From assembly GCA_965248535.1 (NCBI GenBank), contig CBDFJR010000005.1, forward strand, positions 2,387,867 through 2,451,866: DNA of 64,000 bases, read 5' to 3'. Each line of letters opens with the position of its first letter. The stretch's first letter is position 1. This DNA is from Phormidesmis sp. GTDB taxonomy: Bacteria; Cyanobacteriota; Cyanobacteriia; Leptolyngbyales; Leptolyngbyaceae. The position numbers and the translations under genes are program-made. The notes under the pieces were generated by a model. The model was not told the DNA's origin. It saw nothing but the letters and a program-made list of their open reading frames with translations, and did no database searches. Positions 3,433 through 61,535 of this stretch are shown here, in pieces.

Positions 3433-3789
3433 ATGAACCTTGATTCAAAACCGGGTGATAACAGTGGCGAGATCAATCAGCCGATGACGGCTGAAGAGGT
3501 TGACCCCAAACAAAAGCAGGAGCAACAGGCTGAGTTAGATAAAGAATATTTAGCCAGCAACCCTGGCGATCGCATTGACGAGTCAAAATCTCTTGAAGAA
3601 AAAGCGCAGCAAGTGGCTGTTGACACAACCGACATCACGGGAGACCACATCACTGTTCCGACTTATTTTGTGGTTGACTTGCCCGATGGTGAAAAGAAAC
3701 CGTTGCACCACGTTAAAGATGCTGAAGAAATCTCAGACGTGATTCGTCAAGCCAGAATTAATGAAGATGGCGAACAAGTTTGGCGATAG
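3433..3789 (+). CDS. Acidic hypothetical protein
   Basis: 118-aa ORF followed by a terminator. Confidence 0.7.
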   Translation: MNLDSKPGDNSGEINQPMTAEEVDPKQKQEQQAELDKEYLASNPGDRIDESKSLEEKAQQVAVDTTDITGDHITVPTYFVVDLPDGEKKPLHHVKDAEEISDVIRQARINEDGEQVWR

Positions 3790-3813
3790 ATCTAGCTTTG
3801 ACATCGTTGCGAT

Positions 3814-3845
3814 AAGCCCCAAACCCTCAAGGTTGGGGTTTTTTA
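3814..3845 (+). terminator. Intrinsic terminator
   Basis: gccccaaacc/ggttggggtt stem plus T run. Confidence 0.6.
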
Positions 3846-4063
3846 TTAGTTTAGAAGCACGGGGCTGCCGAGCCTACAGCCTGTGTAAAGCGCCAACGCG
3901 ATTTGGGGCACAATTCTTTGATCAATCTAAAAATATTAGCGATCGTATCCCTTGATAGAGACACATCGATAGCAGTTCAAGCACGATCACTATATTCTTA
4001 AAGAGAGACTGCTTTGAGAAGAAATGTAAAGCATTTCTAATCTTCAACCCGCTATATAAAAAT

Positions 4064-4735
4064 ATGTTTCAGGTGTTTCCCTTTAAAACTGATTTTTTTG
4101 ATCCAGACATTCCTCTACTCAAGCGTAAACAATCAGCCTTTGCGATCGAAGATTTGCCGGGGCTGTGGCGGCTGCACTGGCAGATAGGGCAGGTCACCAT
4201 CTTCTCGACCTTTTATACACCGATTGATCAAGCTTGTCTTCTGTGGGGTGTCATTTCATTCGTTATTTTTATGACGGCTCAGTTTGCCCCGATCGATTGG
4301 GCAACACAAGCGTTTTTTTGGTCGGGTCTGACTCTGCTGGGCACAGGCGCAATGGTCAAGCTCTCAGACAGATGGACGGCGATCGAGCCGCTCAACCATG
4401 TCATTTTTGCCTGGATAGTTCTCATGTTGGCGGGTTTAGTGCTGACTGATTTGAGTGTCTTTTTGGGTTGGGGTTCGATGTTGATGCACCTACCCCTGCT
4501 GTGGCTTGCGCTCAACGCGTTTGGCTATCTCTACACGGGCCTCAAGATGCGATCGCGGGCATTTTTGCTGATCTGCGTGGTGCATCTGCTGGCGATCATG
4601 ACCCTTGATTATGTGGGCGTTTGGCAGTTTCTCGAAACGGGAGTCGTCATTGGTCTAAGCTCTGTGCTCTTGGCCGAGCTTCAGTGGGATTCGAGCGGAG
4701 TTTGTGCGACTCATCGATTTGAAGAAAGTCCCTAG
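4064..4735 (+). CDS. Hypothetical multi-pass membrane protein
   Basis: About six hydrophobic segments. Confidence 0.7.
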   Translation: MFQVFPFKTDFFDPDIPLLKRKQSAFAIEDLPGLWRLHWQIGQVTIFSTFYTPIDQACLLWGVISFVIFMTAQFAPIDWATQAFFWSGLTLLGTGAMVKLSDRWTAIEPLNHVIFAWIVLMLAGLVLTDLSVFLGWGSMLMHLPLLWLALNAFGYLYTGLKMRSRAFLLICVVHLLAIMTLDYVGVWQFLETGVVIGLSSVLLAELQWDSSGVCATHRFEESP

Positions 4736-53785: not shown

Positions 53786-55246
53786 ATGATCAATCCACCC
53801 TTCGATTTGTCTCAACACCTTTATGAACAGGTTGCCGATCGCATTCGCACGTTGATGCTCGAAAAAACCCTGCAACCCGGCGATCGTCTGCCTTCGGTTC
53901 GCAAGCTGCACGAACAATTTTCGGTCAGCATCTCGACTGTTTTAGAAGCCTATCGGCTGTTAGAAGACCAAGGGTTAATTGCTGCGCGTCCGCAGTCGGG
54001 CTACTTTGTCAAAGCTCATTTGCTTATTCCTGACGAGCCGAAACAATCTGCTTTGCCTAAACCTAGTTTTCCGGTTGAAGTCTCCCTGGCTTATCGAGTT
54101 GGAGTCACCATGCGCGACCCGACCAAAGTCAAACTAGGTGCAGCCGTTCCCGGTTTGGATCTGTTGCCGATCGCTGCCCTCAATCGCTTAATGAGTCAAG
54201 TGATCCGCACACATTCTGACATCGTGCACTCTTACTCGATCGCCAAGGGATGTGAATCGCTGCATCACGAAGTTGCTAAACGCTTAATTGATGCAGGTTG
54301 CTCGATCAATCCCAATCAAATTGTGATCACAAACGGCACAACTGAAGCCGTCTATCTGTCTCTGAGAGCCGTCACAAAGCCGGGCGATATTGTGGCGATC
54401 GAGTCTCCCTGCTACTATGGCATTCTCGAAGCGCTAGAGGCACTTCACCTCAAAGCTTTAGAACTGCCCACCCATCCTCAAACAGGCATCTCGCTGGGTC
54501 ATTTAGAAACGGCTCTTGAAAATCGCCAGGTTAGCGCCTGTGTGCTGGTTTCTAACTTTAGCAACCCCTTAGGAAGCTGTATGAGTGATGTCAACAAACA
54601 GCGCTTAGTTGCCTTGTTAAATCGCTATGACATTCCCCTAATTGAAGACGATGTATATGGAGAGTTGCACTTTGAAGGAACGCGCCCCAAAGCAATCAAA
54701 GCTTTTGACACAGAGGGACGGGTTCTCTACTGTTCATCGGTTAGCAAAACTCTTTCGCCCGGTTTGCGCGTTGGTTGGTCAGTGCCCGGACGCTATCAGA
54801 TTAAAATCGAGCAACTCAAAATGGCGATGAATTGGATGACCTCGATCGCGTCTCAACTCACAGTTGCTGCTTTTTTGGGTAATAGAGGCTACGATCGCCA
54901 TCTGCGACAACTTCGCCGCGCCTACCAATCTCAAATTGTTCGCATGACTCAAGCTATTTGTGAACATTTTCCTGCCGAAACTAAGGTCACTCGACCCAGT
55001 GGCGGCTATATTCTCTGGTTAGAGTTGCCCAACGAGTTTGAAGCGATGGCGCTCTATGAAGAAGCTTTAGAGCATCAGATTAGCGTTGCGCCTGGTGTGA
55101 TGTTTTCGCCGTCTGGCAATTATAAAAACTGCTTACGCCTTAATTGTGGGCTGCCGTGGACATCAGACCTCGATCGGGCGATGCAAACCTTGGGCTATTT
55201 AACCAACCGCCAGTTGATGAACGCTAAAAACCCGGAATCCCGATAA
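53786..55246 (+). CDS. MocR-family regulator (GntR HTH plus PLP aminotransferase domain)
   Basis: LPSVRKL HTH, IEDDVYGEL and SKTLSPGLRVGW; divergent from EamA operon. Confidence 0.92.
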   Translation: MINPPFDLSQHLYEQVADRIRTLMLEKTLQPGDRLPSVRKLHEQFSVSISTVLEAYRLLEDQGLIAARPQSGYFVKAHLLIPDEPKQSALPKPSFPVEVSLAYRVGVTMRDPTKVKLGAAVPGLDLLPIAALNRLMSQVIRTHSDIVHSYSIAKGCESLHHEVAKRLIDAGCSINPNQIVITNGTTEAVYLSLRAVTKPGDIVAIESPCYYGILEALEALHLKALELPTHPQTGISLGHLETALENRQVSACVLVSNFSNPLGSCMSDVNKQRLVALLNRYDIPLIEDDVYGELHFEGTRPKAIKAFDTEGRVLYCSSVSKTLSPGLRVGWSVPGRYQIKIEQLKMAMNWMTSIASQLTVAAFLGNRGYDRHLRQLRRAYQSQIVRMTQAICEHFPAETKVTRPSGGYILWLELPNEFEAMALYEEALEHQISVAPGVMFSPSGNYKNCLRLNCGLPWTSDLDRAMQTLGYLTNRQLMNAKNPESR

Positions 55247-55249
55247 GGG

Positions 55250-55283
55250 CATAGCAGCCGTGCCCTGGATTGTTAGACCTCAT
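55250..55283 (-). other. Truncated attC (R'' end only)
   Basis: Minus strand ATGAGGTCTAAC is complementary to the cassette start GTTAGACCTCAT at 56148-56137. Confidence 0.7.
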
Positions 55284-55290
55284 CGCGATT

Positions 55291-55503
55291 CTAAAACTCT
55301 TCAACAGTTAACTCAACATCACTTGCAATCTGCCGTAGTAGTCTGGAAGAAATATCTCGACCTTTGTGAAATGGAACAGTTGTTCCTCGACCATCCTCGT
55401 GACGAAACTGCTTGTGCGACCCTTTCTGTCGGACTTCTACAAATCCAAGATTTTCCAATATACGAATAATCTCTTGAGGCTTTAAGACTGGAATAGCACT
55501 CAT
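55291..55503 (-). CDS. hicA: HicA mRNA interferase toxin
   Basis: GFVEVRQKGSHKQFRH..TTVPFH motif. Confidence 0.92.
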   Translation of the reverse strand: MSAIPVLKPQEIIRILENLGFVEVRQKGSHKQFRHEDGRGTTVPFHKGRDISSRLLRQIASDVELTVEEF

Positions 55504-55506
55504 AGT

Positions 55507-55716
55507 CTACGCGATCACAATTTGCTGAGTGCCAACAAATTCTGTATCGAAAGCTGGATTCTCATCTTCCAAAAGCATTTCGATTACCTCACGGAGGTTC
55601 GCTTGCAGTTCATCTAGAGTTTCCCCTTGAGAATGCGCTCCAGGAAAACCTGGGACATACCCTACATATAGGGATGTGTCAAAGTCTTTCTCAACAACAG
55701 CGGTAAACGTTTTCAT
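55507..55716 (-). CDS. hicB: HicB antitoxin (short form)
   Basis: VPGFPGAHSQGETLDELQANLREVI motif. Confidence 0.9.
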   Translation of the reverse strand: MKTFTAVVEKDFDTSLYVGYVPGFPGAHSQGETLDELQANLREVIEMLLEDENPAFDTEFVGTQQIVIA

Positions 55717-55820
55717 AAAATTAACCTCAGGCAGGCTTACTCTTCAGACGGAATGAGCTTGCCCAATCTTAGCATTTTCGGCTGAGAGAATCTGAAAATG
55801 GTTACACGTAATTGCAAGGC

Positions 55821-56120
55821 TTACTTCATCAGCAATGAGGGAAGTTTTTGTTGGATGTTATTAATGATGTAGTCTGCAAAGCTTGAACTGAATTTCGGGT
55901 TTCCACTTTTCATCTGGTGACCTGCATTACCTGTACCTCTCTCATATCAATAGTGAACATGATCACTATCTGGATCAGACTCGCTTGTCAGCGCAATTAG
56001 AAAACCGAACACAAGACCAGATGCTGCATCAACGTTAAACTTGACTTGATAACCTGGCAGCTCAGAATATGTATTCCATGTGCGAGGACAAACTTTATCC
56101 CACGCCATCAAACTTCTCAT
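55821..56120 (-). pseudogene. Cassette ORF with internal TGA (55947-55949)
   Basis: MRSLMAWDKVCPRTW...HY*YERG...LMK*; starts 28 nt after the attC R' site. Confidence 0.5.
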
Positions 56121-56141
56121 TTCACTGGAATTAACAATGAG

Positions 56142-56225
56142 GTCTAACGTTGCCCATCACCCGCCGCAGATCACCTCTGTATCATAACCGATCAATTTCC
56201 GGCGTTTGCATGAGCGTTGTTAGCC
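56142..56225 (-). other. attC site (84 bp)
   Basis: Minus strand GGCTAAC ... GTTAGAC with imperfect internal inverted repeat. Confidence 0.8.
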
Positions 56226-56251
56226 TGCATCTACACCGATAAAGAGGACGG

Positions 56252-56446
56252 TTATGATTGTTCTTTAAGCGTCAATATATCGTCCAATGCATCAATTAGT
56301 TCCCTATACTCCTCAATAGAGGATCGAAGATCATAATCGTGTCTAGGATCATCAGCGCCATACGTTTCAAGATAATTTTCAACCTGCTGTAGTCGGTCAT
56401 AGAAATAGGTGATGACTATATCGATAACCTCACAATCAATTGCCAT
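56252..56446 (-). CDS. Small acidic hypothetical cassette protein
   Basis: 64-aa ORF overlapping the upstream ORF end and ending before attC. Confidence 0.55.
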   Translation of the reverse strand: MAIDCEVIDIVITYFYDRLQQVENYLETYGADDPRHDYDLRSSIEEYRELIDALDDILTLKEQS

Positions 56447-57379
56447 TTTCTAACGTCTTTAGTTGAGGTGTGAGATCGATCAATAAGCTCTCCTCTTTCC
56501 ACAAAGGAGATGTCCAATAAAAATCAGTAGATAATTTTAATTTTTGGGAATTAATCGCATGGGCAATCACCTCTACAAGCCACTGCCATCCTTGCATGAC
56601 ATCAGAGGAGTTTAAGAGACGAGCTAGATAAGCATTAACGTAAGGATTATTTGGGCTAATTAGAGGAGAAAGCTCACTAAAGGGGAATTTCAAGTTGTTT
56701 TGAGTGAGGAGTTGAAGAACTTCAAAGACTTGAGTGGTAGCACGTCCTCCACACATCGCAATCATTCGCTGCCCACCACGAGCTTCTAGGCATGTACTCA
56801 GCAAATATCCGCGCAACCCATCGTCAGATTCCTGCCATATCGCCTCAATCAATGTACTAAAGAAAGACTCACTTTGTGATCTCTTCAAGTAAGTGCTCAG
56901 TTGCAAGGTGAGAAATTTCATCATCACTGTTGCTCTCCAGTGTTAGCAAAGTTGCTAATGGTAATTTCAGGTACTCTGGCTGGGCTGATTTCAGAATTGC
57001 TTGCTGCACAACAGTGGCATGATCTTGGAAGAGGCGATCGCACAAGAATTGATGAATAGTACTATCAGTACTGAAGCTTGTTTGGATCAGATATTGGCAT
57101 GCTGTAGCACGAACAAATGGATCAGAATCATCCTGAGCATAAACACGCAGGATTAACTGTTCACCCAGTCCAGCCAAAATCACGAGCAACTGACGGCGCA
57201 CACCAGGTTCTAGGCTGTTTTCAAGACTCTCGATCAAGGTAGAAGTACCTTGTTTTCCAAGCCAAGGTGCCGAGTGCCCACGCCGCCCAAATTCGCTCGC
57301 TCCCATCATCAGACTGTAGAAGTTGGCGTTGTGTGTTCATATCAAGTTGAGAAACTTCTCTGTAGCTTTGATAGGGCAT
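56436..57379 (-). pseudogene. HEAT-repeat-like cassette gene(s), frameshifted
   Basis: MPYQ..ERIWAAWALG (ATG 57379) shifts near 57262 into LGKQG..DPFVRATAC; ORF 56436-56927 may be a further shifted continuation. Confidence 0.55.
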
Positions 57380-57464
57380 GGCAGACTTCTTCCCAGAACA
57401 TTTCGGCGAACTGGCTAAATATAAGACACAAGTTTTAGCGTAGGAGATGAGGACTGACTGAGCA

Positions 57465-57550
57465 GGCTAACATTCCTATTGAGCGGCTCAAAGTCACGCT
57501 AAACTTTTATACGAAAATCTCAAAAGTCCGCTCCAACATGGTTGTTAGAC
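57465..57550 (-). other. attC site (86 bp)
   Basis: Minus strand GTCTAAC (contains the upstream ORF's TAA) ... GTTAGCC. Confidence 0.82.
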
Positions 57551-58404
57551 CGTGGCAAGCACAGTGTCCTGATTTGGCAATATGCCAGACATCACGATAG
57601 CGTGACATCCCTGGTCACTATCTACCACCCCCCTTGTCTTTGTTATATCCATAAATTCTGCGGCGAGTTTGTCTGAGCTAATTTCTTTTGGCAAGGTAGC
57701 CGAATTGGAGAAGTTGTCTCCCTGATAATACAAATGATGGTCAAAATTTGCCTCCTTATGAACTTCTCCATCATGAATATGAATCGTAGGGAAAAAGAGT
57801 GTATTAGGTGAACGAGTGATAAATTCAAATGCCATTGGATGTGGTTTATTCAAGCGAGAAGGTAAGCTCGACCAGCGATCGGCATAAGGATTATCCTCGG
57901 TCGCTGGCATATATTGCTGTTGATTGCGAGTGGATACCTTCAACTTAAATATTCGTCAGCAAAACCATAATCTTTATATTTGGGTAAACGATCCCAAACT
58001 TGCTTTGATAACTTGAATTGAGGGTCTAAACGATCAAAGTCATTTAGGGTAGGGATGAAACTCGCATTGTAATCGCCTACTTCATAGACTTTCAGCGGTT
58101 CCGAAGCAGAACGTCCACGTTCTCCTGAAAATGACCTTGATAGCTCAGGCATCAGTTCAGGAAAGCCAGTTAACATATCATCGAAAAAATTCGGATAACT
58201 ATCCAAAGCTATGAAACGAACGGCTACATCTTCATCATGAGAACCAACAGGCAACGGCAGGATCATCGCCATATCCTGGTCTGCTTCATACGCCATGCTA
58301 TAGACTAAAAACTGCTTTGATTCAGCAGAACGTCTCGCAAAGATCTTTGTTCCTTCTACCAATGAAACTGAAGCAGAGAAAATACACATAATTGCAAAAA
58401 CCAA
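57545..58404 (-). pseudogene. Single cassette gene split by a frameshift near 57955
   Basis: MCIFS..AMILPLP..YGFA reads on into IFKLKV..HPMAFEF..FFPTIHIHDG if the frame is corrected. Confidence 0.65.
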
Positions 58405-58440
58405 ATATTTATAAATTATGTCTTAACAGATAAATCAGTG

Positions 58441-58529
58441 GTCTAACGACCCCGTTCACCCGCCGCTATTAACCTCTCGGACTCAACGAAGCAACTCAAT
58501 ACGGTCGGTGTGCAACGGGATTGTTAGCT
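58441..58529 (-). other. attC site (89 bp)
   Basis: Minus strand AGCTAAC-aatcccgttgcac...gtgaacggggtc-GTTAGAC. Confidence 0.85.
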
Positions 58530-58625
58530 GTTAATCGCCCTCCAACTAAGTCTCAAGAATCATCTTGACCCACTTCTCTCGGAAATTTCTTAGCCTTCTC
58601 AGAGCGTTTCGCTGAAAAGATTTGA

Positions 58626-59035
58626 TTACCAAAGCCGCACGACCCTAGTTTGAGCCAGAATATCACCGAATCGAGTGTGTTGTGATCTGAAAATCCATAT
58701 CCAGTCAAAAACACTCAAAATTTGGGTGAGATTACGAATGGCAGATCTGAATAGCGAGCAAGGTCTACCAGATTCTTTCTCCACTACCGCAATTTTGTAG
58801 AGACGCTTTCCTAAACTTTGTCCTTGAGGCAGACCATCGGCTAGAAGATAATAAAGCACGAAAAGGATTAACCCCTTTGGCAGCAAGAGTAACAGAACTG
58901 CAACAAGACCATCTATAGATTGAGCACCTAGCCTAGCCCAAGGCGAGGCGAGATTTGGGTTTACAAAATCGAAACCACACTCACACAATTGATTTTATCG
59001 AGATTTGCCAAGCGGCATTTCGGACACCTCTTCAC
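58626..59035 (-). CDS. Zinc-ribbon plus RDD-family protein, frameshift near 58990
   Basis: GTG 59035 KRCPKC shifts into CECG; ASPWARLGAQSID, GQSLGK and GDILAQT RDD motifs. Confidence 0.7.
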
Positions 59036-59104
59036 TAATCCTTCCTCTCCTAATTACCAAAGCTCATACGATCTGATTGCCTTTGGAAACCTAAATGTGT
59101 TGAC

Positions 59105-59295
59105 AGCTAACTTAGACTGATCTGGTCTATCTAACCTCACTGATTTGGGTGATTATGCTGAAACTTCTCGGTCTAACCCTTCCAATCAGGAGATTAGGCT
59201 GAAAGTTTTCTGTCTAACTTATCAAATTCGGGATTAGAGCAGACAGAGATCTGTATAACGTCCTGCAATTAGGGAATTAGCAGAATCTGGCTTGC
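59105..59295 (-). repeat. Array-head R site plus ~41-bp degenerate tandem repeats (putative attI region)
   Basis: GTTAGCT at 59111-59105; plus-strand units (c/a)taac...atta...gc.ga at about 59131, 59173, 59214 and 59255. Confidence 0.5.
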
Positions 59296-59586
59296 ACTCA
59301 CATAATATCTCTTCAAGAAATTAACAGCATAGTTTCAAGAAATCTTCATGATGAGTGGAGTCATTCTTACCCTAGCTGTCTAATGAATCCGTACCTCTAG
59401 GAACCGATCGCGCCTCCCTTCTCCAAAAAACGATCGCGCCCTCTCTCAAAAACTCAGCATTCCAAAAAACAAAAAACTCTTGTACAATACACCGCAGTGA
59501 TGGAGTTGTGCCCCGAAGCCTGATCTACCAAATCAGACTCCGAGGTCTTCCATCCCTAGTTAACAACACTAACTCAGGAGGCGTTC

Positions 59587-59706
59587 ATGATTGTACACCG
59601 TCAGCTTTGCTATGGGATCTTGAAAGGCTGGAATCAAGATCCTGCATACAGGTTTCACCCCAACCCAATGTCTGAGAGATCCGTGTTTTTGTCCTCTTTG
59701 AATTAA
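59587..59706 (+). CDS. Putative 39-aa leader ORF
   Basis: AGGAGG RBS; MIVHRQLCYGILKGWNQDPAYRFHPNPMSERSVFLSSLN; stop lies in a hairpin loop. Confidence 0.4.
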   Translation: MIVHRQLCYGILKGWNQDPAYRFHPNPMSERSVFLSSLN

Positions 59707-59722
59707 TCGAGAGGACAAAAAC

Positions 59723-60094
59723 ATGGCAGTTAGGACGATCGTGCCTAGCTCGATTTCGTTTACGGTTGAGTTGCGATGCTCAATCGAAAAACGTTATCGG
59801 GTGAGTGTGGTTTTGGATTTACAAGAGCGTTATCTCTTTGTGCCGTCTGGCATTCTCGTGAATGTTAGCGACAGCATTGAAGAGTTTGTCTCAGAACTGA
59901 GTGAGATTGCGTCTAATCAACTGGCATTTCTGAAATGGGATGGCACCAGTGATTTGACCACAGAGTATCAAGTTGTTCGAGTGTTGCCTGGTTATCAGGT
60001 TGAACGTTCTTTAGTGAAGTTCAACATTGTTCTGGGTAGTGGTTCATTAATTCAAGTAGAGGAGTTGCACAACAAAACGACGATTCAACTATAG
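59723..60094 (+). CDS. Hypothetical protein
   Basis: 123-aa ORF with GAGG RBS and downstream stem-loop. Confidence 0.55.
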   Translation: MAVRTIVPSSISFTVELRCSIEKRYRVSVVLDLQERYLFVPSGILVNVSDSIEEFVSELSEIASNQLAFLKWDGTSDLTTEYQVVRVLPGYQVERSLVKFNIVLGSGSLIQVEELHNKTTIQL

Positions 60095-60164
60095 GACGTT
60101 GGGGTTAGGGAGTCGTCAATATCCCCTTTTGGAAAGGCTCCCTAACTACTGTGCAAGTAACCGA

Positions 60165-61535
60165 TTACCAGTCTGCTGCAAACGCGATCAATTTCAAATG
60201 ATCAGGGTTTGCAAGCAACTCCTTGGCTAACAAATATCCTGTGATTGTCCAGGTTTGATATTTGCGCGCCTCTTTGCCGATTAAACGACCGTCAGGGCCG
60301 TCATAATATTCGGGCCAATGATCTTGCATTAAGCGGCGTTCGGCAACGGCGATCGCGTGATGTGCCAATTCGCCGCGCTCCATTTTTTTGGCGGCGGCGG
60401 TCAACATCCACAGCAAAACGGGCCAGCTTCCGCCATTGTGGTAAGACCAAGGGCGATTTTTAGGATCGGCCCCGGTGACGATTCTCCAATCGCTGTCTTC
60501 TAGCGCTGGGTAGCACAGCTTCATGGGCATGTGCCCCACGAGATCATCCCACCGTAGCTCAATTAAGTTCAAAATCTTGTGAGACTGCTGTTCGTCGGTT
60601 AGTGAGGCGATTACTGCCATCAAGTTACCTAGAGAAAAGAAGCGACAATCTAGCTGTGACGGCCCTAAATTGCCCGCTAAATAGCCTCCTGCTTCGGGCA
60701 ACCAATTGGCTAATCGATAAAACGGAATCGAGTCTGAATAGATGTTGAACTGGTTGAGCGCTTCTTCTCCATATTCCTCGACCTGAAAGCGGTAAATCAC
60801 ATTTAAGCGATCGGGGTCTAACCAATAATGTTCTCGAATCTGTTTGGTTAGCGGCGGCAGGCGATTTTGCACCGCTCGAATCATAAATTGATTGGTCTCG
60901 TTGGGAATCAGCATCTCAAGACTGGCCTTGAGTGCTGCAAAAAACAGTGACTGAATATCGAGGGGATGCCCATAAAGCCCCATGCGGCGATCGATCATAC
61001 TGGCCGCATCGGGAACTAGCACCATCGGATACATATCAAATCGGGTGACTAGGCAGAGTTCTAAAACCAGCCGAATGCCTTCTTGAAAGTCGTCTCGCTC
61101 AATCAGGTCGGTGTCTTGAGTGGAGATCGCATAAGCCCGCAACAAAATCACCCACCACAAACAGGCATCAGCCGGGGCAACTCGCCCGATCGCATGGTCG
61201 CCAAAGTCAGCCTTTAAATATTCTTGCCCATTAAAAGACTGAATTTTGAAACTAGCGGGCATCAGACCACGACTGGGTTTTGAGCAGTCTAGCTGCCCTG
61301 TTTTGGGCTGCAAGGTCAAGGTCGCTTCTAAAAAGTTGCGAACAATTTCTGATCGACCTTTGATCAAAAAAAGCAGGGCTGACGAGACAAAATCTCGAAT
61401 AAAGCACTGATCATAATTTAAGGCAGCAATTTCTGGATCGAGGGCCGCGATCGTGCCGATCGGTTGCCCACGAAAATAAATGATCGATTTTTCAAGAGCG
61501 CTCCATGCCTGTTCTTCAAGTGATTGACTACCCAA
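60165..61535 (-). CDS. Alkaline/neutral invertase (GH100)
   Basis: LNYDQCFIRDF, GLMPASFK, MIDRRMG, YHNGGSWP and WPEYYDG motifs. Confidence 0.93.
   Translation of the reverse strand: MGSQSLEEQAWSALEKSIIYFRGQPIGTIAALDPEIAALNYDQCFIRDFVSSALLFLIKGRSEIVRNFLEATLTLQPKTGQLDCSKPSRGLMPASFKIQSFNGQEYLKADFGDHAIGRVAPADACLWWVILLRAYAISTQDTDLIERDDFQEGIRLVLELCLVTRFDMYPMVLVPDAASMIDRRMGLYGHPLDIQSLFFAALKASLEMLIPNETNQFMIRAVQNRLPPLTKQIREHYWLDPDRLNVIYRFQVEEYGEEALNQFNIYSDSIPFYRLANWLPEAGGYLAGNLGPSQLDCRFFSLGNLMAVIASLTDEQQSHKILNLIELRWDDLVGHMPMKLCYPALEDSDWRIVTGADPKNRPWSYHNGGSWPVLLWMLTAAAKKMERGELAHHAIAVAERRLMQDHWPEYYDGPDGRLIGKEARKYQTWTITGYLLAKELLANPDHLKLIAFAADW

Follow-up and report, generated by a model that had tools for sequence, protein, structure and literature searches.

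Positions 55272–59111 of a 64,000-nt stretch of the Phormidesmis sp. genome (assembly GCA_965248535.1, contig CBDFJR010000005.1; the whole stretch is hereafter called the window) raise the question of whether a set of minus-strand open reading frames (ORFs) separated by palindromes is an integron cassette array, and how such an array came to stand where no integrase gene lies beside it. An earlier note on this DNA had described the locus as an attC-site cluster that has no integron integrase (CALIN), with four cassettes. The analysis reported here makes it very probable that the locus is a real integron cassette array, a CALIN abutting its attI-like platform, whose cassettes were inserted by an integron integrase (IntI) and beside which the intI gene is absent. 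CALINs are defined as such clusters in Cury et al. 2016 (PMC4889954), which also reports integrons in Cyanobacteria and CALINs in genomes with IntI elsewhere; the array falls under this definition because it is a row of attC sites with no integrase gene beside it. Three complete attC sites bear out the proposed description, while the fourth cassette end proved to be degenerate and an attI-like platform is retained. The genome (G000; 5.03 Mb in 5 contigs, with the window on C5) was compared with 30 relatives, denoted below by similar handles.

The three complete sites are attC a (58440..58530; R'' AGCTAAC, R' GTTAGAC), attC b (57464..57551; R'' GTCTAAC, R' GTTAGCC) and attC c (56141..56228; R'' GGCTAAC, R' GTTAGAC), all on the minus strand. 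These co-oriented palindromes of ~85 bp are spaced by 976 and 1323 bp and divide the array into four cassettes, whose assigned ORFs of at least 57 aa lie on the minus strand in every case. Measured from box to box, the sites are 89, 86 and 84 bp long, inside the ~57–141 bp range of attC sites. All three form a long imperfect hairpin on both strands with CTAAC and GTTAG paired at its base; on the plus strand, the folds have DNA z-scores of -2.7, -2.9 and -1.0, and the corresponding values for the minus strand are -2.3, -2.3 and -1.7. In the model, the bulges fall where they are expected, on the top strand's 5' (R''-L'') arm; the folding check proposed beforehand had been meant to reveal such extrahelical bases. 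In the alignment of the three sites, 12 of the 28 predicted pairs are maintained despite changes on both sides.

A covariance model built from the three window sites (R1) returned 37 rows for the genome; apart from the 3 window sites and one reverse-strand duplicate, these correspond to 33 further places. One of these places lies 2.2 kb from the integrase gene intI-1 and five lie 1.4–7.9 kb from intI-2, and all six of these intI-adjacent sites are on the divergent strand, in the textbook integron arrangement. A second model (R2) was built from 23 attC sites outside the window, six of them beside intI genes. Searched with filters off, R2 matched only the three attC sites in the 64-kb window, in a strand-specific manner, and the next best match reached 11.1 bits. 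The scores were 71 bits (E 3e-15) for attC a, 56.1 bits (E 1e-11) for attC b and 65.7 bits (E 5e-14) for attC c, against 22.4, 12.1 and 7.6 bits, respectively, on the plus strand. Lengths, folds and R2 scores of 56–71 bits thus uphold the claim of three 84–89-bp attC-like sites between co-oriented minus-strand ORFs. Across the 23-site alignment, the L-box helix is 98% paired, with 7 of its 10 pairs changing on both sides; 82% of cells are paired, compared with 25–40% when the partners are slid, in an alignment that was fitted to the model and therefore favours pairing. Sites a and c (58443–58526 and 56144–56232) have counterparts 80–94% identical in many other cyanobacterial families (e.g., G025, G029, G030), a likeness that suggests either an attC family widely shared and conserved in sequence or an exchange of cassettes in recent times. 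Two cruder finders were discarded: a strict regular expression for the boxes misses all three sites and yields several chance matches, and a genome-wide hairpin scan returned 315 hits and was too unspecific.

The ends of the cassettes provide a second line of evidence. The start of each cassette had been claimed to be complementary to the R'' box of its own downstream attC, and all four complementarities are indeed present, perfect over 9, 8, 10 and 12 nt. The start of cassette 1, GTTAGCTG(T) at 59111, pairs with (A)CAGCTAAC at 58530/58531; that of cassette 2, GTTAGACC at 58447, with GGTCTAAC at 57551; that of cassette 3, GTTAGCCTGC at 57471, with GCAGGCTAAC at 56228; and that of cassette 4, GTTAGACCTCAT at 56148, with the R'' box ATGAGGTCTAAC (55283–55272). 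Because GTTAG is common to all cassettes, the informative part of this signature lies in 19 further, variable positions, which by direct count agree with the cassette's own downstream R''. Complementarity of this kind is the trace expected from integration of circles at G↓TT. The stop codon reported to lie within an R'' box was located as well: the TAA (57545–57547) of ORF 57545..57943 falls inside the CTAAC of the R'' of attC b.

At the start of cassette 1 the array adjoins an attI-like platform (59111..59240, minus strand), delimited by the start of homology and by repeats, which consists of the crossover G(59111)↓TT and three direct GTCTAAC-type motifs. These motifs are contained in direct repeats (D2) spaced 41 nt apart (59148–59229). 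Window positions 59112–59237 are 78–81% identical to DNA of G004, G005 and G006, which represent three sister species, and in the four-genome alignment conservation starts at 59112/59113, right after CAGCTAAC, with unrelated left-hand DNA in each genome. Next to its platform of the window type, G006 has other DNA with an attC scoring 58.3 bits. To judge from these alignments, the conserved stretch borders on differing cassettes at the point of the predicted crossover, as an attI site would. The attI regions of the two complete integrons of the genome have analogous repeats of different sequence, and direct repeats with a GAAA(G/C)TTTC-like core and different flanking motifs were observed in all three attI types of the genome; the repeats may be binding sites for the integrase or a regulator. 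Beyond the platform lies a repeated 720-bp module (59405..60148, plus strand) that points away from the array and has 17 copies in G000 at 86–94%.

Another array of the same contig (C5:792339-798694) has the same attC family and carries the 720-bp module at its attI side, with the attI type of integron 2 and no intI; it has a 178-bp insert at the junction, whereas the window array has its own attI type and no insert. A sequence of ~180 bp was observed at the junction of attI and first cassette in both complete integrons and in the array at C5:~797.3k, with no difference seen between them; it corresponds to positions 3766–3943 of locus L009 (C2:1132765-1132942) and is also found on C2 upstream of intI-1. 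A related copy occupies the same junction in the platforms of G004 and G005 (L034, L033). The sequence gives a weak match of 22 bits to the attC model, and Rfam places a group II intron domain near it (L009 4222–4291, minus strand).

Comparison with the 30 relatives revealed that the cassettes vary independently of one another. Cassette 2 with its attC (window 57468–58383) is 93% identical to a sequence in G003:C113 and, among the matches listed, was found in G003 only. There the match ends 3 nt from the predicted cassette boundary, unrelated DNA follows past the attC, the neighbour is different, and the cassette gene is a single 265-aa ORF followed by its attC. Among the matches listed, cassettes 1 and 3 had no counterpart in the 30 relatives. 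Homologues of the hicAB genes of cassette 4 were detected in four other genera; the similarity sets in at the cassette end, and no attC context surrounds them. A lack of cassette-wise presence and absence in related strains had been named as grounds for abandoning the CALIN reading; instead, cassette 2 occurs alone in G003 and the G006 platform holds other cassettes.

The absence of an integrase gene is a property of the locus and not of the cell. None of the 41 distinct window ORFs of at least 170 aa that were scanned matched PF00589, in agreement with the claim that the window holds no tyrosine recombinase gene. A tblastn search with both IntI proteins of the genome found nothing in 59000–60200 at E up to 10, and its single weak match in the window lies at 4372–4482 (E 0.037). 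No adjacent divergent intI, the mark of a complete integron, accompanies the window array. Nevertheless, the search for intI elsewhere that the earlier note had recommended uncovered two integron integrases, both on contig C2 (TIGR02249 at 468 and 466 bits; cut-off 265), which have open frames and share 68% identity. Because two intact copies exist elsewhere, 'integrase-less' holds at this locus but not for the cell. In-place loss of intI, rather than its original absence at the platform, is what we infer, although no intI remnant lies between attI and the module. A possible route of decay is illustrated by G006:C13:404873-406145, an intI pseudogene comprising the N-terminal half only, with three TAA stops, which has a split 720-bp module copy on one side and the attC at C13:409572 on the other and looks like an intermediate stage of integrase loss.

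The array might instead be a piece of a formerly complete integron that was moved here by chromosomal rearrangement, for example by homologous recombination between the 17 module copies, so that no intI was ever lost in place. At the identities given above, these copies are ample substrate for recombination, and rearrangement is named as an origin of CALINs in Cury et al. 2016 (PMC4889954). Moreover, the genes on either side of the array, a MocR-type regulator (53786..55246, plus strand; GntR helix-turn-helix and aminotransferase domains, PF00392 and PF00155) and the chromosomal gene for an alkaline/neutral invertase (60165..61535, minus strand; PF12899 at 2e-214), are not neighbours in G002 or G006, being placed there on different contigs or separated by 315 kb; homology to the invertase orthologue starts at window position 60176. 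However, the window-type attI is unique in G000, where all other matches start at query position 294 or later, and in none of the four genomes in which the window-type platform was found does an intI lie beside it. Because the platform is unique here and lacks intI in four genomes, its type seems to persist without intI and not to be a recent fragment, and we regard relocation by rearrangement as unlikely.

The opposite end of the array invites a different explanation, in which the cassettes went directly, with no attI involved, into a secondary attG-type (GWT) site at the 3' end of the MocR gene. Integrases are able to insert cassettes at GWT sites genome-wide, according to 10.1101/2022.09.11.507474. 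Homology of the MocR gene to its orthologues in G002 and G006 stops at 55215, exactly at the point at which CGCCAGTTAGCCAG stands in the orthologues, and over its last ~10 codons the gene departs from them (tail MNAKNPESR compared with ARKMLNE), so that the C-terminal tail of the regulator is apparently encoded by DNA belonging to the end of the cassette array (55216–55246). At this junction a degenerate or truncated terminal attC was delimited (55216..55271, minus strand), namely a short hairpin (AATCC..GGGCA / TGCCC..GGATT) that follows R'', lacks a recognisable R' and overlaps the MocR stop codon; its fold is weak (z -1.0 to -1.6). Sequence comparison allows the junction to be read either as a truncated attC or as an old secondary-site joint of the attG kind, and under either reading cassette 4 is probably immobile because a complete 3' site is absent. 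The hicAB homologues of G005, G012, G018 and G020 offered no complete attC for comparison with this terminus. Against insertion at an attG site as the origin of the array, the canonical crossover at its other end leads into a conserved platform, the G006 representative of that platform type is accompanied by other cassettes, as an attI would be, and the MocR-end junction is not a clean joint between attC, G↓TT and target. We therefore consider such an origin improbable, and more so than relocation by rearrangement.

That the repeats belong to a non-integron palindromic family (repetitive extragenic palindromes or miniature inverted-repeat transposable elements) resembling attC can practically be dismissed: cyanobacterial genomes are rich in short palindromic repeats, and the sites are unusually alike, a and c being matched in other families as described above, but sites of this type are found near both intI genes and on the strand expected, cassette starts and R'' boxes show the chimeric signature, the model scores depend on the strand, and a conserved platform meets variable cassettes at G↓TT.

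For the integron array, the following history can be proposed. An integron integrase, which recombines folded attC sites with attI at G↓TT, would have inserted the four cassettes successively as circles. From elsewhere in the genome, the two intact integrases, expected to recognise this attC family, could still act in trans to excise cassettes 1–3 or change their order. Cassette 4 would have lost the outer half of its attC and is probably fixed, anchoring the array end at the 3' end of MocR. The analysis shows the attC sites and how they are built, the signature at the junctions, the boundary of the platform and the presence of integrases elsewhere in the genome, whereas both the past insertion by IntI and the present mobility in trans are inferences.

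Several observations weigh against this interpretation. The strict consensus RYYYAAC...GTTRRRY, which had been ascribed to the sites, is not fully matched by any of the three on either strand; each has one mismatch, in one box. The identities of the bulged bases differ from the G and T that we take to be typical of model attC sites. The two covariance models are not fully independent, since the training sites of R2 were gathered with R1; for this reason, the independent evidence for the attC family is the position and strand of its members relative to the intI genes. For the fourth attC, R2 gave no match at E up to 10 with filters off. Because cassette 4 ends in only R'' and a short hairpin, which escaped detection, we describe the array as three full attC sites and a degenerate end. 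In other arrays of the genome, start/R'' complementarity of at least 8 nt was present in 4 of 8 consecutive site pairs; missed intermediate sites or the parsing of boxes may account for the other four. Between attI and the flanking module, tblastn found no remnant of intI, and a promoter scan of 58900–60250 gave no sigma-70-like site on the cassette strand. Finally, HIP1 sites had been noted as sparser than in flanking DNA. One such site occurs in the 3840-bp array (0.26/kb) compared with 0.92/kb in the window, where ~3.5 would be expected; the density is thus lower, but the depletion is not significant on its own (Poisson estimate ~0.14). Speaking for the interpretation, the guanine-cytosine content of the array is 42.9%, compared with 49.1% for the window, and fits a foreign origin.

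Sedentary chromosomal integrons of the Vibrio type have lineage-specific, sequence-conserved attC sites and toxin-antitoxin cassettes. The window resembles them in that its attC sites are alike within the lineage and a toxin-antitoxin cassette (hicAB) is present; unlike them, the genome has short arrays (at most 6 attC-model matches per locus searched) that are many and separate, with intI beside only two. The window agrees with the CALINs described in Cury et al. 2016 (PMC4889954) in having at least two co-oriented attC sites, no intI nearby and cassettes mostly without assigned function, and its genome encodes IntI elsewhere, as do about half of those CALINs. It differs from them in keeping an attI-like platform conserved across species, in its flank formed by a multi-copy module, and in its degenerate last attC. 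With the attG insertions and single attC sites lacking integron integrase (SALINs) treated in 10.1101/2022.09.11.507474, the window shares an integrase-less chromosomal cluster, one end of which falls at a sequence containing GTT within a host gene's 3' end; in contrast to them, its other end is a conserved attI-like platform and not a random GWT site. As a CALIN the locus is ordinary. To a class whose members have come mostly from automatic surveys, it adds a well-delimited cyanobacterial case in which the attI can be identified and the cassette boundaries are exact, and it gives entry to an unusual genome-wide layout in which many intI-less platforms share a module and only two integrases are present.

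The cassettes differ in content. Cassette 1 (58447..59110, minus strand), whose start and R'' are the 9-nt pair described above, encodes an RDD-family membrane protein (ORF 58626..58988; PF06271 at 1.4e-12). Cassette 2 (57471..58446, minus strand), the one with a homologue in G003:C113, holds a gene without a recognised family, split into ORFs of 154 and 132 aa, whose product matched nothing in Pfam, NCBIfam or PADLOC. Cassette 3 (56148..57470, minus strand) contains fragments of a HEAT-repeat protein (PF13646, HEAT_2), distributed over three overlapping ORFs in different frames (57221..57379, 56869..57309 and 56436..56927), together with a 64-aa ORF (56252..56446). Cassette 4 (55272..56147, minus strand) comprises a 57-aa ORF (55947..56120), a HicB-like antitoxin (55507..55716), a HicA toxin (55291..55503) and R''. 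The HicA and HicB genes are adjacent, with a Pfam match to PF07927 at 8e-20 (71 bits) and HicB-like matches to PF15919 and PF21748 at ~5e-7 and ~30 bits, barely above the cut-offs. By this adjacency of genes, cassette 4 is a predicted type II toxin-antitoxin system of the HicAB kind. No Rfam family reached its gathering threshold in the window, and none was found in 55000–60300 at E up to 1.

Contigs of two public sequencing runs with near-identical DNA (X1 and X2) carry indels at 56443, 56880, 57266 and 57952, which are the exact ORF break points of cassettes 2 and 3 in the window. When these indels were applied by script, cassette 2 became a single 284-aa ORF and cassette 3 became two ORFs of 200 and 176 aa. 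Since longer ORFs are restored in this way, mutations specific to the strain or errors of assembly may underlie the frame breaks. The four public runs gave no sign of excision, because they are present as contigs only. Joints from 56168/56170 to 58499/58501 were considered as excision products and rejected, as they contain ~30 foreign letters and represent other attC sites, and partial shares in runs X3 and X4 were rejected as cassette-wise presence, being the result of a low depth of near-identical DNA.

The repeated 720-bp module has a layout of its own on the plus strand, composed of a TACAAT -10-like box (59483–59488), a structured leader of ~240 nt (~59489–59722), an ORF of 123 codons (ORF123; 59723..60094) and a terminal hairpin GTTAGGGAG..CTCCCTAAC (60104–60146). 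The leader folds with a z-score of -3.0 and has conserved stems and variable loops, and its final hairpin, which contains the Shine-Dalgarno sequence, buries the ribosome-binding site. Module copies were present in all 7 same-genus genomes searched and, among the matches listed, in no other genus. Two ideas about the leader were rejected. A 39-aa frame (59587–59706) does not behave as a protein, with codon-position variability of 4/8/7 and 536 nonsynonymous against 164 synonymous changes. The loop of the leader hairpin does not match the attI repeats of its own platform better than those of others (mean 10.9/17 for its own compared with 11.1).

ORF123 is 123 aa long in 14 of the 17 copies; the exceptions are a copy of 124 aa, a copy truncated to 31 aa and one whose start was not located. 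Its variable sites are distributed over the three codon positions as 31/16/79, a pattern by which we consider it a real gene, predicted to be under purifying selection. It has 414 homologues, and those with a source name are annotated as 'hypothetical protein' of Phormidesmis. Only 14 representative clusters were found at E up to 0.001. The AlphaFold model is confident, with a predicted local distance difference test score (pLDDT) of 87.8. No Pfam, NCBIfam or PADLOC family was assigned to the protein, and no fold was matched: the best hits were E 0.14 for Foldseek against the PDB, Z 4.7 for the wide VIA-align search and E 0.054 for a profile search of the PDB, and nothing beyond weak or unnamed clusters came from the ESM Atlas.

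The module is associated with one type of integron. In integron 2 it begins 2 bp past the intI stop, and the order intI-then-module also occurs in G001, G002, G003 and G006, i.e., in five genomes of the genus together with G000; integron 1 has no module copy nearby. At least one attC-model match lies on the leader side, on the opposite strand, in 12 of the 17 copies (two of them weak, at 22.8 and 26.9 bits), and the remaining 5 have none there; in G006 the corresponding count is 8 of 11 copies. On the simplest reading, the module is part of the platform in one integron type of this genus, platforms have multiplied and most have lost intI. A bolder proposal, which we put forward tentatively and hold to be possible rather than probable, is that the genus runs a multi-platform integron with at least a dozen attI docking sites per genome, short arrays and one or two integrases acting in trans, and that each platform is marked by the module, whose promoter, ~240-nt leader and 123-aa protein would constitute a new accessory function. 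In that case, the module would, for example, control, stabilise or copy the platforms. If the platforms are still used in trans, a CALIN would mean a set of working satellite docking sites and not debris, and the 123-aa protein with its leader would be a candidate new integron component. Judging by titles and abstracts, the literature searched contains no account of integrons in Phormidesmis, of multiple attI platforms without intI or of the module. Within the leader, an 8-nt stretch between a conserved GTTA and a conserved TAAC (59560–59578) was observed to be different in nearly every module copy.

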